A DNA stretch of 64,000 bases from Escherichia phage YUEEL01, in sequence record NC_054935.2, one strand, 5' to 3'. Below the pieces are notes generated by a model. The model was not told the origin of the DNA. It worked only from the letters and a program-made list of their open reading frames with translations, and ran no database searches. Position numbers and translations under genes: made by a program. This document shows, in pieces, positions 1,172-17,013 of this stretch (position 1 is its first letter; the number at the start of each line of letters is the position of its first letter).

Positions 1172-1201
1172 GTTTACAAGTCCCTCATGTTGTGTTATAG
1201 T
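1172..1201 (+). promoter_or_regulatory. T4-type early promoter (GTTTAC -35, TATAGT -10) upstream of alc
   Basis: GTTTAC 1172-1177, 18-bp spacer, TATAGT 1196-1201; immediately after rnlA stop. Confidence 0.6.
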
Positions 1202-1226
1202 AGACTTACTGACATAACATGAGGAC
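1172..1226 (+). repeat. copy A of ~55-bp early promoter/leader cassette
   Basis: GTTTACAAGTCCCTCATGTTGTGTTATAGTAGACTTACTGACATAACATGAGGA; differs from copy B (16636-16690) at about 3 positions. Confidence 0.8.
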
Positions 1227-4167: not shown

Positions 4168-4197
4168 GTTTACTTTACGGTAGAGTTGTGATATTAT
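4168..4197 (+). promoter_or_regulatory. T4-type early promoter
   Basis: GTTTAC 4168-4173, TATTAT 4192-4197 with upstream TG; precedes ORF 4228. Confidence 0.55.
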
Positions 4198-4227
4198 AGC
4201 TCTATCAAAACAAATGAGGAAATTAAA

Positions 4228-4755
4228 ATGAGCGAATGGTTTGAAGAAGATAAGGTTTATCGCTTTAAAACTGGGTATAAAGATATTTTTAATGAAACTT
4301 GCGGGGCTAATAAACGAATTGCCCAGTTTATTGGGGAAAATTCATTTAAAGTAAAAATAGATCCTGCGAAAAATGTTATTAGCATTAAACGCGAAATTGA
4401 TGACTGCTGGTATAAAGCTGTTGATGTAATGGGCGAATCCTATAAAGTTAGCCCGTTATTTTCAATTGCTTATATGTTAGAATATTCTTTTTTCGAAGAA
4501 GTTCAAAAAGATGATTCTGCCAGTAAATTTGAAATTAAAACTGATAAAGAAATTAAGTGGAAAGTAGTAGGTATTACTGGTTGTATGTTTTATATCTATG
4601 CTCAAACTGATACGAAGGAAGAAGCTAAAAATAAAGCTCTAGAATATCTTGAAGAGTATGAAGAAGGTCCGGTAATGATTACTCAAGATGCTGAATTAGT
4701 TTCTGTCAAATTAGTTAAAAACGTTGAAAGTAAGGAGCTGGGATCAACATGCTAA
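4228..4755 (+). CDS. hypothetical protein (175 aa)
   Basis: ATG with GAGGA SD; preceded by early-promoter-like element. Confidence 0.6.
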   Translation: MSEWFEEDKVYRFKTGYKDIFNETCGANKRIAQFIGENSFKVKIDPAKNVISIKREIDDCWYKAVDVMGESYKVSPLFSIAYMLEYSFFEEVQKDDSASKFEIKTDKEIKWKVVGITGCMFYIYAQTDTKEEAKNKALEYLEEYEEGPVMITQDAELVSVKLVKNVESKELGSTC

Positions 4756-7476: not shown

Positions 7477-7653
7477 ATGGCAAAACAAGCTAAAGCAAAG
7501 AAAGCAGTTGAAAAGAAAGTTGGTGATTCTAAACGCGCTGGCTACAAGCGTGGGTCGAACTCTCGTATCAATCAAACTGTTGAGAAGATCATGCGCCGAG
7601 CACGTGCGGTTCTTCGAGATGATGCTTCTCGTTTTGGTAAGCAGAAAGCATAA
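7477..7653 (+). CDS. small highly basic protein (58 aa)
   Basis: Track ORF 7435..7653; ATG at 7477 gives MAKQAKAKKAVEKK..., Lys/Arg-rich; strong terminator directly downstream. Confidence 0.55.
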   Translation: MAKQAKAKKAVEKKVGDSKRAGYKRGSNSRINQTVEKIMRRARAVLRDDASRFGKQKA

Positions 7654-7658
7654 GTTGA

Positions 7659-7685
7659 GGACTCCTTCGGGAGTCCTTTTTTATT
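7659..7685 (+). terminator. intrinsic terminator
   Basis: GGACTCC-TTCG-GGAGTCC hairpin followed by TTTTTTATTTT, 6 nt after stop of ORF 7477..7653. Confidence 0.8.
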
Positions 7686-7706
7686 TTCCAAAGATTGCAT
7701 AAAGTT

Positions 7707-7739
7707 GTTTACAGTATGGTTCCTTTGTGATAGTATTAT
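7707..7739 (+). promoter_or_regulatory. T4-type early promoter
   Basis: GTTTAC 7707-7712, TAGTATTAT 7731-7739; precedes ORF 7764. Confidence 0.55.
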
Positions 7740-7763
7740 CTTACACAAACAAAGGAGAATAAA

Positions 7764-8096
7764 ATGAAAACGATTAATCTGAACGCTGCAGTTAAAACTA
7801 AATGCTTCAATGGTAAATATGATGAAACTATGTGGTTCTTAATGGCAGTTGAAGGTGATATTATTGAAGTAGAAACAACAGAAGGTATGGGAACAGATTT
7901 CACCTTTACAATTCAAGTTCATAATTTCTTTACTGGTTGGATTTATGAATTGAATACAGTAATCGTTGGAAAAATTGAACAAAATGAATTAGGTGAATGG
8001 TATTATGTTACAGCTCGCCAACGTGCCGAACGCTTAATTGAGAAGATGAAAAAAGTTGGTAAACTTGACATGCAGCATTGGAAAGTAGTAAAATAA
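7764..8096 (+). CDS. hypothetical protein (110 aa)
   Basis: ATG ORF with AAGGAG SD and its own early promoter. Confidence 0.6.
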   Translation: MKTINLNAAVKTKCFNGKYDETMWFLMAVEGDIIEVETTEGMGTDFTFTIQVHNFFTGWIYELNTVIVGKIEQNELGEWYYVTARQRAERLIEKMKKVGKLDMQHWKVVK

Positions 8097-8098
8097 TT

Positions 8099-8127
8099 GT
8101 TTACTTTGGTACAGGATATGATATTAT
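8099..8127 (+). promoter_or_regulatory. T4-type early promoter
   Basis: GTTTAC 8099-8104, 17-bp spacer, TATTAT 8122-8127; precedes ORF 8165. Confidence 0.55.
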
Positions 8128-8164
8128 ATACCTGTACCGCAATTAAACATCTTGGAGAATAAAA

Positions 8165-8530
8165 ATGAACTACATCAACTTTGAACGTAAATATGTTTCT
8201 AATGGTATTGCAGGTTCTATTGATACTATTTGCCTTTGGAAACATCAAAATGGATCAGTATGCGAAATTGAGCAGTATATGACTCCTAATTACGTTTATA
8301 TGCGATTTGAAAACGGTATCACGGTTTCAATCACGATGGAAGGTTCCAACTTTAAAATCGCTCTGGATGATGATTTCCGTGAACGCGATTTAGGGACTCA
8401 TCCTTGCTGGAATGGCGTTAATCGCAAGCTTTTGGTTAAAACTTGGATTCGTCATATTCTGAGTAACAGAGCTAAACCTGAGCATCTTGAAGCAATCTTT
8501 GATGTAGTTCTTAACGAATTTGATATTTAA
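8165..8530 (+). CDS. hypothetical protein (121 aa)
   Basis: ATG ORF with GGAG SD and its own early promoter. Confidence 0.6.
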   Translation: MNYINFERKYVSNGIAGSIDTICLWKHQNGSVCEIEQYMTPNYVYMRFENGITVSITMEGSNFKIALDDDFRERDLGTHPCWNGVNRKLLVKTWIRHILSNRAKPEHLEAIFDVVLNEFDI

Positions 8531-12289: not shown

Positions 12290-12474
12290 AAGCTTACTTA
12301 GAAACAATTGTCGTGGCTCAAAAAGAAGGTGGAGATGTTTCTACTTCTGTATCACAAGTCATTCTCGAATTTGTAGATGCATACGCTTATAATAAATTTA
12401 CAGAAACATTTGATGCCTATGAAAAAGGACCAAAGTTTGAAATATATCGTACTCTCTTACCACTAGATTACTAA
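12286..12474 (+). CDS. hypothetical protein (62 aa)
   Basis: Small ORF overlapping ligase stop, followed by hairpin terminator. Confidence 0.5.
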   Translation: MKAYLETIVVAQKEGGDVSTSVSQVILEFVDAYAYNKFTETFDAYEKGPKFEIYRTLLPLDY

Positions 12475-12492
12475 AGGCCTTCGGGCCTTTAA
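12473..12492 (+). terminator. intrinsic terminator upstream of alt late promoter
   Basis: AAAGGCC-TTCG-GGCCTTT hairpin followed by AATTTT. Confidence 0.65.
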
Positions 12493-12495
12493 TTT

Positions 12496-12503
12496 TATAA
12501 ATA
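12496..12503 (+). promoter_or_regulatory. late promoter TATAAATA for alt
   Basis: Exact TATAAATA 21 nt upstream of alt ATG, just after a terminator hairpin; alt is a late-expressed packaged protein in T4. Confidence 0.65.
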
Positions 12504-14578: not shown

Positions 14579-16636
14579 ATGGAACTTATTACAGAATTAT
14601 TTGACGGCGCTTCGGCGCCGGTTGTTAACTTAAATCCTAAGCATAAAATACCTCAAATTTTTGCTATTCAAGCCGGCGAAGAAAGCGTGCTTCCTGGATT
14701 TAGATTTTGTACATACACCTCTGGAGGTGATACAAATAAAAACGTTAAGCCGGGCGATAAAATGATGCATATCGTAATGATAGGTGTCAACGAGAAATTA
14801 TCACTGGTTAAACTTAGAAACTTGGGTGGAAATCCAATTGGCGTCATTAACGCTGTTTTTGATACTGCTCTTCAAACAATGAAACAGTATAAAATTGATG
14901 CATGCTTATTCCGCGTACTAAAGAGTAAAACAAATGGAGCTGCTCGTCAAATGCAAGTTATTGCTGACCGTTTAGTACGTACTAAAGGAGCAGGTCGATA
15001 TGTTCTTTTAAAGGAAATCTGGGATTATGATAAAAAGTACGCATATATTATGGTTTATCGTAAAAATGCCAATTTAGAAGACATTCCAGGTGTACCTCCT
15101 ATTTCAACTGAGTTATTCACAAAAGTTGAATCAAAGGTTGGTGATGTTTATGTAGATGTTAAAACAGGTAATGCTGTTCCTAAAGCTGTTGCTGTTGCTG
15201 CTTCTATTGCTTTAGAAAATGATAAGCGCACGGACCAAGCTGTTATTCAGAAAACTAAAATTAGTCGTCGATTAGCAGCACAAGCTCAATATTCTACTGT
15301 TGATGCTTCACTTCAGGGTGATAGCTTCGCTGCTAAGAAATATCAAGAGTTTGAATCTAAAGTTCCGGTGTATAAAGCAGAAGGACCAATGAACTCTGGC
15401 GTTATTCAAATTGGTTCAAACTTCAGCAAAGGAGCTATAGGCGGTATGAGAAGCGCTTCTCGTTTTAAATCTAGTGATTATGAACTCGAAAGCTTCCGAA
15501 ATCATATTGCATTAGCCCATGCACGTTTACGTGATCCATCTATCAAGTTACAGAGCGATATAACATATCAAGGTTCTCAAGAATATTTAAAGAATAAAGA
15601 ATTCTTTGATTATAAGACTGATAAAATTTTAAGCGATCTTGCTGATATTAATATTTCTAATAGCTTTGATGTTATTAAGAAAATTATCAATGATTTGGTT
15701 AAAGGTTCTAAAGCTACGCCAGATGAAAAGACAGCTATTATTCAATTTGTCATGAATGGCATTTATAAATTGATTAATGAATCTGCTGCTCAGGCATATG
15801 AATACGCAAGCACTGAAGTAACTCCAAAAGGATTAACTCAAGCTGAATCTGATGTAATTGAAGATTATTGTGCAGATTCATATGTTGAAATGAACTCGTT
15901 CCTTTTGGGTAAACCAGATTCTACCCGTGAAGAATATATGGAACGAGCTATTAAACATATTGAGACGCTTGATTCTGCATTCGCTAAAGGTTCAGTTCTT
16001 CCTCCAGGAACTACACTTTACCGTGGACAAGAAGTTACCTTTAAAACTTTGCGTCATAACATTGAAAATAAAATGTTCTATTTCAAGAACTTCGTATCCA
16101 CATCGCTTAAACCAAATATCTTCGGTGAGCATGGTAAAAACTATATGGCTCTAGATGATTCCGGCGCAGTATTTTCTGGTGAAGGAGAAGGTTCCGTTGA
16201 TGCAGAAGATTTGATGCATATGGGTAGTCATTCTACATATGCTAATGAAGATGCTGAAACTAGCGTGGGTATGGTAATTAAAGGAGCTGAGCGAATCAAA
16301 GTTATCGTTCCGGGTCATTTATCAGGATTTCCGTCAGAAGCTGAAGTTATTCTACCACGTGGAATTTTACTGAAGATTAATAAAGTAAGTACTTACTTTA
16401 TGAAAGAAACTGCTTATAACAAGTATCTAATCGAAGGTACAATCGTTCCTCCTTCTGAACAATTAGAAGAATCAGTATATGATGGCGACCATCTAATGGA
16501 AACTGGTGAAGTTCGTCCAATGGCTGGATTTAATCAATTCCTTGTAGAAGAATCAAAAGAAGAGGAAAGCGAAGTTTCTCAAATCTTAGCTTCTTTGGTT
16601 AACATCAACGGAATGTCTAAAAAGTTCAAAATGTAG
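14579..16636 (+). CDS. Alt-like ADP-ribosyltransferase paralog
   Basis: 685 aa; N-terminal ~230 aa and C-terminal ART-like region (LYRGQ, FVSTSL, EVILPRG) clearly homologous to the upstream Alt, central region divergent; 3-bp spacer from alt. Confidence 0.85.
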   Translation: MELITELFDGASAPVVNLNPKHKIPQIFAIQAGEESVLPGFRFCTYTSGGDTNKNVKPGDKMMHIVMIGVNEKLSLVKLRNLGGNPIGVINAVFDTALQTMKQYKIDACLFRVLKSKTNGAARQMQVIADRLVRTKGAGRYVLLKEIWDYDKKYAYIMVYRKNANLEDIPGVPPISTELFTKVESKVGDVYVDVKTGNAVPKAVAVAASIALENDKRTDQAVIQKTKISRRLAAQAQYSTVDASLQGDSFAAKKYQEFESKVPVYKAEGPMNSGVIQIGSNFSKGAIGGMRSASRFKSSDYELESFRNHIALAHARLRDPSIKLQSDITYQGSQEYLKNKEFFDYKTDKILSDLADINISNSFDVIKKIINDLVKGSKATPDEKTAIIQFVMNGIYKLINESAAQAYEYASTEVTPKGLTQAESDVIEDYCADSYVEMNSFLLGKPDSTREEYMERAIKHIETLDSAFAKGSVLPPGTTLYRGQEVTFKTLRHNIENKMFYFKNFVSTSLKPNIFGEHGKNYMALDDSGAVFSGEGEGSVDAEDLMHMGSHSTYANEDAETSVGMVIKGAERIKVIVPGHLSGFPSEAEVILPRGILLKINKVSTYFMKETAYNKYLIEGTIVPPSEQLEESVYDGDHLMETGEVRPMAGFNQFLVEESKEEESEVSQILASLVNINGMSKKFKM

Positions 16637-16665
16637 TTTACAAGTCCCTCGTGTTGTGTTATAGT
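16636..16665 (+). promoter_or_regulatory. T4-type early promoter (second copy of the 1172 cassette)
   Basis: GTTTAC 16636-16641, TATAGT 16660-16665; near-identical to 1172-1201. Confidence 0.6.
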
Positions 16666-16690
16666 AATCTTACTGACATAACATGAGGAA
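16636..16690 (+). repeat. copy B of ~55-bp early promoter/leader cassette
   Basis: GTTTACAAGTCCCTCGTGTTGTGTTATAGTAATCTTACTGACATAACATGAGGA. Confidence 0.8.
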
Positions 16691-16696
16691 CACAAA

Positions 16697-16987
16697 ATGA
16701 AATCTTCTTTACGCTTTTTAGGTCAAGAACTTGTAGTTGAAGGCGTTATTCCTGCTGATAACGCTTTTAATGAAGCAGTTTATGATGAATTTATCAAAAT
16801 TTTTGGAACAGATAAAAAGTTCGGAATTTTTCCTTCTGAAAATTTTTCAAAGCCAGAACAGACTGAAAGTATTTTCCAAGGTGTAGTAACAGGTAAATTT
16901 GAGTCAGAAGCTCCGGTAAAAATTGAAGTTTATATTGAAGACAGTTTAGTTGCTTCAGTTTCTGCTTTCATTTCATTCCGTAAATAA
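16697..16987 (+). CDS. hypothetical protein (96 aa)
   Basis: ATG ORF with GAGGA SD behind duplicated early promoter cassette; followed by bidirectional terminator. Confidence 0.55.
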   Translation: MKSSLRFLGQELVVEGVIPADNAFNEAVYDEFIKIFGTDKKFGIFPSENFSKPEQTESIFQGVVTGKFESEAPVKIEVYIEDSLVASVSAFISFRK

Positions 16988-16991
16988 AAAT

Positions 16992-17013
16992 ATGGGGACC
17001 GAAAGGTCCCCAT
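16992..17013. terminator. bidirectional terminator between convergent ORF 16697 (+) and gene 54 (-)
   Basis: ATGGGGACC-GAAA-GGTCCCCAT hairpin flanked by A/T runs on both sides. Confidence 0.7.

Follow-up and report, generated by a model that had tools for sequence, protein, structure and literature searches.

An early promoter and leader cassette carried twice by a T4-like phage, with a promoter spacer complementary to the SD of the following gene

Two nearly identical early promoter and leader cassettes, one before alc and one before alt.-3, were found in the window (the whole stretch of 64,000 nucleotides of Escherichia phage YUEEL01, NC_054935.2, that was analysed). In both, a stable hairpin pairs the promoter spacer with the region of the SD of the next gene. 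On the basis of the folding calculations and, above all, of the comparison among related phages it is considered, with moderate confidence, that the cassettes act as a translational gate, which would restrict the translation of alc and alt.-3 to RNA from their own early promoters and deny it to middle or late read-through RNA of rnlA or alt.

The window belongs to the genus Tequatrovirus (T4-like coliphages). Its first 20 kb showed up to 98.6% identity to Tequatrovirus genomes, and 461 records spanned at least 80% of this query. The gene order on the + strand is rnlA, alc, pseT.3 through pseT, cd, 31, rIII, 30.x, 30 (DNA ligase), alt.1, alt, a second Alt paralogue and alt.-3, and baseplate and tail-tube genes follow alt.-3 on the - strand. 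The two cassettes and their neighbouring genes are as follows.

8–1168, + strand, rnlA (RNA ligase 1 / tail-fibre attachment), from the ORF list and the annotation of relatives; presumed upstream source of read-through RNA for copy A.
1172–1225, + strand, cassette copy A (early promoter and leader), between the rnlA stop codon (TAA, 1166–1168) and the alc ATG (1230).
1230–1736, + strand, alc (inhibitor of host transcription), from the ORF list and the annotation of close relatives and T4; gene after copy A.
14579–16636, + strand, full-length gene of a second Alt-like ADP-ribosyltransferase, from the ORF list and relatives; upstream of copy B and presumably co-transcribed with alt.
16636–16689, + strand, cassette copy B (early promoter and leader, before alt.-3), 51/54 identical to copy A.
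16697–16987, + strand, alt.-3 homologue (96 aa), from the ORF list and annotation; gene after copy B.

At the site of the second Alt-like gene only two small remnants (alt.-1 and alt.-2) are present in T4, and copy B is kept both there and here. Alt.-3 has recently been linked to escape from the CmdTAC defence system.

The two copies aligned without gaps over their 54 bases, with mismatches at 1187 (A/G) and 1203–1204 (GA/AT), and a comparable match was obtained in none of 100 dinucleotide shuffles. The preliminary description, made from the sequence alone, had located both sites and recognized their near-identity correctly; its count of about 52 in 55 has to be corrected to 51/54, or to 51/55, since position 55 differs. 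The identity is bounded exactly by the -35 hexamer on the left and by GAGGA on the right, and the flanks are unrelated (4–11 of 20 bases alike). At the right-hand ends the GAGGA that had been named as the SD was found at 1221–1225 and 16685–16689. At the left-hand ends the copies had been said to start at the stop codon of the preceding gene, which is so for copy B, whose first base (the G of GTTTAC) is the last base of the stop codon TAG (16634–16636) of the Alt paralogue, while copy A begins 3 nt past the rnlA stop codon. The other early-promoter cassettes of the window were like copy A or B at just 16–35 of the 54 positions; the pair is thus far closer than the family consensus accounts for.

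About 497 sequenced Tequatrovirus relatives, T4 among them, have exactly two copies, before alc and before alt.-3. A 201-bp query around copy A was found at 997 places in 501 records, that is, at two places in essentially every Tequatrovirus record, and in T4 both copies are present with a one-base difference. Neither cassette matched any Rfam family at E ≤ 1. One matching record, MG010123.1 (L114, 'Staphylococcus phage SAJK-IND'), is an UNVERIFIED partial record with copy B, alt.-3 and gene 54 and with Tequatrovirus in its taxonomy line. It was rejected as a sign of a mobile cassette, as the record is really Tequatrovirus and its host label looks wrong.

Both cassettes have the make-up of T4-type early sigma-70 promoters, with GTTTAC, a 17-bp spacer and a TGn-extended -10, in line with the 17 (±1) bp and the form TAnnnT of that type. 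The pair of a GTTTAC -35 and a TATAGT -10 that had been picked out by eye was recovered in both copies by the promoter scan.

1172–1177, + strand, -35 GTTTAC of copy A, equal to the T4 early -35 consensus; promoter scan 10/12, 17-bp spacer.
1193–1201, + strand, extended -10 TG-n-TATAGT of copy A, from the promoter scan; predicted start at about 1208.
16636–16641, + strand, -35 GTTTAC of copy B, from the promoter scan, 17-bp spacer.
16657–16665, + strand, extended -10 TG-n-TATAGT of copy B, from the promoter scan; predicted start at about 16672.

The start sites at about 1208 and 16672 were derived from the usual 7-nt distance after the -10. An A/T-rich run, TTTTTTGAAAAATTATAAAAAATTTAT, lies at 1127–1153 and ends about 19 nt 5' of the -35 of copy A; AAAAAGTTCAAAATGTA lies immediately 5' of the -35 of copy B. 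Both are inside coding sequence. The late promoter motif TATAAATA was found neither in nor near either cassette.

Folding of the two cassettes gave the following structures, in each of which the helix is interrupted by a one-base and a two-base bulge.

1178–1228, + strand, hairpin A, with the 5' arm (1178–1202) over the spacer and -10 and the 3' arm (1207–1228) over the leader, including the SD.
1221–1225, + strand, SD GAGGA of alc, paired with 1181–1186 in the MFE and centroid structures.
16644–16691, + strand, hairpin B, with the 5' arm in the spacer and -10 and the 3' arm containing the SD GAGGA (16685–16689).

Hairpin A has 22 bp and an energy of -24.8 kcal/mol (z -4.36), and hairpin B about 22 bp and -23.0 kcal/mol (z -4.84); 0/200 shuffles were as stable in either case. 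A negligible energy of the stem, which the preliminary description had named as grounds for giving up its reading, is not what these values show. The 9-bp inverted repeat CCTCATGTT/AACATGAGG on which that reading was built is present, but it is the mere core of the helix of about 22 bp, and the G.U position reported for the second copy was seen in copy B and also in both T4 copies. The apical loop of each hairpin lies just 5' of the predicted start (about 1208 and about 16672). GAGGA at 1221–1225 lies 4–7 nt 5' of the alc start, and GAGGA at 16685–16689 lies 7 nt 5' of the ATG at 16697. The alc gene has two in-frame ATGs, at 1230 and 1233 (ATGATGG), 4 or 7 nt from GAGGA, of which the second is used in the T4 annotation (167 aa) and the first in that of some relatives (168 aa).

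The accessibility of the SD was expressed as the energy for exposing its five bases, and read-through RNA was modelled from 60 or 150 nt upstream. At copy A the opening energy was 8.0 kcal/mol in the read-through RNA versus 1.1 kcal/mol in the promoter-initiated RNA, and at copy B 10.4–11.1 versus 1.6 kcal/mol. The promoter-initiated leaders themselves are nearly unstructured (-3.2 and -2.2 kcal/mol; z -1.1 and -0.3). Since the whole of the 5' arm precedes the predicted start, read-through RNA would bury the SD and promoter-initiated RNA would leave it nearly free. An SD hidden on read-through and free on the gene's own transcripts had been proposed before any folding, and the modelled energies (8–11 versus 1.1–1.6 kcal/mol) agree with it.

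The sources from which read-through RNA may come were considered next to the known expression of these genes, and two elements around alt are relevant.

12496–12503, + strand, late promoter motif TATAAATA before alt, 3' of a terminator hairpin (12472–12491); likely source of late read-through into alt.-3.
16992–17013, bidirectional terminator-like hairpin, from the terminator scan; closes the alt / alt.-3 unit.

No terminator was called by the terminator scan between the late promoter of alt (12496–12503) and 16992, so late transcripts from alt should run into alt.-3. In T4, rnlA has a middle-promoter-like TGCTT ... TACTAT upstream. T4 time-course data place alc and alt.-3 among genes with early RNA and early protein, and according to T4 omics data rnlA has early RNA and late protein and Alt protein accumulates late.

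The proposed gate would work as follows. An early sigma-70 promoter is fused to the leader of the next gene, and its spacer is complementary to the SD region about 40 nt downstream. RNA containing both arms would arise at copy A by middle or read-through transcription through rnlA and at copy B by late transcription from the TATAAATA promoter of alt; it would fold into the hairpin of about 22 bp and, with the SD buried, alc or alt.-3 would not be translated from it. Such untranslated read-through RNA may then undergo Rho-dependent termination or decay. RNA from the cassette's own promoter would have its 5' end within the apical part of the hairpin and would not include the 5' arm; its leader of 22–25 nt would be almost unstructured and translatable. 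Translation of the two genes would in this way be bound to the brief phase in which the early promoters fire.

Such a gate probably explains how two early genes can lie directly 3' of middle or late genes (rnlA and alt) without giving a late product. The spacer of a sigma-70 promoter would here carry a second code, at the RNA level, in the form of an anti-SD. For phage engineering and annotation it would mean that moved or replaced promoters alter not transcription alone but also translation.

The region upstream of alc was compared in GenBank phages of 11 genera and in 40 IMG/VR loci, which were found with an Alc protein alignment. Pairing between spacer and SD was present in at least 10 sequence lineages, comprising eight Tevenvirinae genera (Tequatro-, Gelderland-, Karam-, Jiaoda-, Dhaka-, Kanagawa-, Winkler- and Kagamiyamavirus) and further IMG/VR lineages, with differing stem sequences. 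The anti-SD part of these spacers is formed by the bases directly 3' of GTTTACA. Six of the stems before alc are listed below; the last two lineages are given by their labels.

Melville: 5' arm TCTCCGTTT, 3' arm AAACGGAGA.
Pet-CM3-4: 5' arm TCTCCATTTGGTT, 3' arm AACCAAATGGAGA.
Jiaodavirus: 5' arm TCCTCATCA, 3' arm TGATGAGGA.
WG01: 5' arm TCTCCTCAT, 3' arm ATGAGGAGA.
L094: 5' arm CTCTCATTTT, 3' arm AAAATGAGAG.
L095: 5' arm CTCTCGTTTT, 3' arm AAAACGAGAG.

In an alignment-free swap test on duplex energies, performed with 16 lineages including the exceptions given below, each lineage's own spacer and own leader had a mean of -14.7 kcal/mol versus -7.7 kcal/mol for cross-lineage combinations, and 0/20000 permutations were as extreme. 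Compensatory changes were seen in 4/14 pairs, counted on 15 aligned leaders of which 12 were in register and three rows of the Jiaodavirus group, off by one, were counted as unpaired. The covariation score was 0.244 versus 0.141 in shuffles (0/500), above that of every slid register. When 33 alc leaders were simply aligned with MAFFT, their 3' arms fell 1–3 nt out of register from one lineage to another, and for this reason RNAalifold predicted no structure. A covariance-model alignment placed some lineages wrongly and was excluded from the pair counting.

Exceptions were found at alc. Mosigvirus has just a short hairpin within the spacer and no SD pairing; Tegunavirus and phage PEi20 have strong hairpins that stop about 3 nt 5' of the SD; Gaprivervirus is arranged differently; and lineage L110 has no hairpin. 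Without selection on the pairing itself, its maintenance through differing sequences and compensatory changes would be difficult to account for. The alc hairpin is judged to be ancestral in the subfamily. Upstream of alc in Acinetobacter phage Henu6 (L066:165-232) there is a promoter hairpin, AACCCATTATG ... CATAATGGGTT, followed by a U-run, which, unlike those of the enterobacterial phages, looks like a true terminator overlapping the promoter.

Before alt.-3 the long SD-masking helix was found in Tequatrovirus only. In most other genera a short hairpin of the form CCAC-AAGGAx-GTGG lies within the spacer. In Kanagawavirus (L070:191-253 and L071:191-253) the partner of the alt.-3 spacer GAATGAACG is the AUG with the first codons, CGTTCATTC (AUGCGUUCAUUC); here the start codon is masked instead of the SD, a like logic with another target. 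The near-identity of copies A and B points to one past copying event, and most parsimoniously the Tequatrovirus alt.-3 cassette would be an alc cassette that was copied over the original alt.-3 promoter. The sole argument for this direction is the architecture, which at alc goes back to the ancestor and before alt.-3 is missing from the other genera; in the orthologue comparison the cassette identities were 36–42 to alc orthologues versus 34–41 to alt.-3 orthologues, from which the donor is not discernible.

The short spacer hairpin, with a stem CCAC/GTGG (or CACC/GGTG) and an SD-like loop AAGGA or TGGAG, recurs in promoter spacers. Upstream of alt.-3 it was located at L057:32866-32925 and L058:33831-33892 and in L067-L069 and L072. 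It is also present in the middle-promoter-like region before T4 rnlA (CCACATGGAGTGTGG; L002:18985-19020, minus strand).

All five + strand early promoters of the window lie inside hairpins that span the -10. The SD is masked at three of them (1172, 7707 and 16636) and unmasked at the other two (4168 and 8099). The third masked promoter has a like architecture.

7707–7766, + strand, third early promoter, GTTTAC ... TGTGATAGTAT, whose spacer TTCCTTTGT pairs with ACAAAGGAG, containing the SD of the 30.8-like ORF at 7764.

At this promoter the probability that the SD is paired with bases before the start was 1.00, a value reached by 2/200 in the null. The orthologous promoters of PhAPEC2 (L058:27029-27101) and Melville (L057:27351-27421) also have a masked SD, and their stem sequences differ. 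At the promoters 4168–4230 and 8099–8167 hairpins of -13.7 and -16.1 kcal/mol were obtained (at most 2/200 shuffles as stable), in which the spacer pairs with bases just 3' of the -10 and the SD is free. SD masking can therefore not be the sole reason for promoter-embedded hairpins. A weak Rfam match, to the Rhizobiales sRNA Atu_C8, was recorded at 7609–7692 (31.4 bits, gathering score 50, E 0.0066). Terminator-like hairpins at 7615–7631 and 7657–7678 fall in this interval, and tandem hairpins of this kind probably gave the match by chance.

In the window and in 40-kb stretches of Melville and PhAPEC2 together, the SD was paired to pre-start bases with a probability of at least 0.99 at 7/21 early promoters, and about half of the 21 had hairpins more stable than nearly all motif-preserving shuffles. 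SD masking is one recurrent use of a broader habit of hairpins in early promoters, and it explains this habit in part. It is possible, though rather doubtful, that a spacer doubling as anti-SD (or anti-AUG) is a general design rule of T4-type early cassettes, which would insulate translation from upstream transcription. If this rule were true, the protein output of each early gene would track its own promoter alone, which could be part of the reason why early-protein synthesis drops rapidly after about 3 min, a drop so far unexplained, and Rho polarity on untranslated RNA could explain terminator-like stem-loops without a U-tract in the cassettes known as PeSL (promoter-early stem-loop).

The hairpins could also belong to a PeSL-type module that acts on DNA and transcription, as a terminator or attenuator and as a recombination site, in which case the pairing with the SD would be a by-product. 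The inverted repeat consists mostly of Watson-Crick pairs and could thus act in DNA as well as in RNA, and folding favoured the sense over the antisense RNA only in Tequatrovirus, being neutral or reversed in other genera. In the PeSL reports, lacZ placed 3' of one stem-loop was expressed less, as after a strong terminator, and nearby PeSLs gave rise to minicircles; SD masking together with Rho polarity could, however, itself give an attenuator-like effect of this kind on a reporter. All five early promoters here lie in hairpins, two of which do not touch the SD, and copy B adjoins a variable spot, where the Alt paralogue is intact in this phage and reduced to remnants in T4. A weak UUUAU follows the helix of copy A, but the tails are A-rich, without a U-run, at copy B and in most genera and alc orthologues, and the terminator scan called neither cassette. 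Moreover, the 3' arm before alc covers the SD in at least 10 lineages, for which a pure terminator or DNA site has no need.

Exchange between the copies bears on the same point. As direct repeats in the same orientation the cassettes had been regarded as possible substrates for deletion of the whole alc-to-alt block. The 15.4-kb interval between them contains genes 30 (DNA ligase) and 31 (co-chaperonin), both essential in T4. Synthetic junctions for the deletion and for the reciprocal duplication were searched for, and 0/497 Tequatrovirus records matched either contiguously; each junction was matched as two separate halves. The idea of a deletion is therefore unsupported, given the essential genes within the interval and the absence of a junction from the 497 genomes, and the absence of an A/B recombinant junction also stands against a recombination site. 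On this evidence a module acting on DNA and transcription, with incidental SD pairing, is considered unlikely.

Another possibility is translational coupling, in which the hairpin would keep alc or alt.-3 silent on polycistronic RNA as long as its 5' arm has not been melted by a ribosome completing rnlA or alt. The anti-SD begins just 7–15 nt past the stop codon of the preceding gene, in many genera a TAG that overlaps GTTTAC. A terminating ribosome unwinds about 7 nt past the stop codon, by the usual estimate. It would then reach at most the outer 0–2 bp, and a core of 12–14 bp with the SD would remain; the distance from the stop codon to the downstream AUG is about 60 nt, and the tight spacing is equally explained by the fitting of a promoter into a short intergenic gap. 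Coupling is thus held to be improbable. As a point against the translational gate preferred here, ribosomes terminating at the upstream stop, which lies 7–12 nt 5' of the anti-SD, might transiently loosen outer base pairs.

The palindrome could instead be an operator for a dimeric DNA-binding protein, a repressor site that shuts off early promoters: it extends over the -10 and the start site, and how T4 early promoters are shut off is, according to the literature, unknown. The arms, however, differ completely between genera and yet stay complementary, and their spacing shifts by 1–3 nt, which fits a nucleic-acid helix rather than a conserved site for protein binding. They measure 13–22 nt, and in Tequatrovirus the sense strand tolerates G.U pairs. 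The operator reading was rejected because the arms covary rather than stay conserved, and its probability is very small. That the cassettes have no function beyond the promoter, with the likeness due to the long T4 early consensus (whose extended elements are shared among T4 early promoters according to the literature, and of which GTTTAC and TTGTG-TA..T recur at 4168 and 7707) or to neutral duplication and with an inverted repeat formed by chance, is scarcely credible in view of 51/54 versus 16–35/54 for other cassettes and hairpin z values of -4.4 and -4.8, and is already contradicted by the covariation across genera and by the keeping of both copies in about 497 genomes.

The translational gate can be compared with four kinds of known system. 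With the T4 early promoter family (UP / -35 GTTTAC / TGn / -10) the cassettes share GTTTAC, the 17-bp spacer, the TGn-extended -10 and a short A-rich leader with an SD. The family consensus covers about half of the bases common to copies A and B; the remaining identity over 54 bp and the long helix are peculiar to the pair. With intrinsic (Rho-independent) terminators they share a stable G+C-containing hairpin at a gene end; such terminators have a U-tract, whereas none follows copy B or most orthologues. A reading as intrinsic terminators was rejected on account of this missing U-tract and of the terminator scan, which called neither site.

PeSL cassettes have been described from RB49/phi1, PST/T4 and nt-1/KVP40 as a strong sigma-70-like promoter with a stem-loop, either over the -10 or between it and the -35, together with an SD and an ATG (Arbiol 2010; Comeau 2014). 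Compared by descriptions, both cassettes share this structure, with an intergenic sigma-70-like early promoter, an overlapping stem-loop, an SD and an ATG, and with repetition within the genome; they differ in exchange between copies, of which 0/497 genomes gave a recombinant junction. The PeSL stem-loops are read as terminators or attenuators and as recombination sites, an interpretation given in the available part of Comeau 2014, whereas here the 3' arm is the SD and copy B has no U-run. A search of the text of Arbiol 2010 returned no mention of translation or sequestration. The gate offers a testable reading of T4-type early-cassette stem-loops, which until now have been discussed as terminators and recombination sites.

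The closest likeness in logic is to the hairpins of T4 e, soc, 49 and I-TevI, in which long RNA initiated upstream has its SD and/or AUG paired within a helix and the RNA of an internal promoter is translated (PMC3014915). Neither alc nor alt.-3 nor 30.8 is among the known cases given in PMC3014915, and no description of SD masking at these three genes was found in the searchable T4 literature, a scope that most of the older T4 literature lies outside. As in those hairpins, the SD of both cassettes is paired in the long RNA, and their own transcripts, from the predicted start, would lack the 5' arm, which would give temporal control without a protein factor. The e, soc, 49 and I-TevI hairpins have late promoters (TATAAATA) and translation that is late only; both cassettes depart from this class in having an early sigma-70 promoter, with the anti-SD in its spacer and with translation that would be early only. 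The alc and alt.-3 cassettes would be the early-promoter counterpart of the T4 e, soc, 49 and I-TevI hairpins; the trick is known and the example is new.
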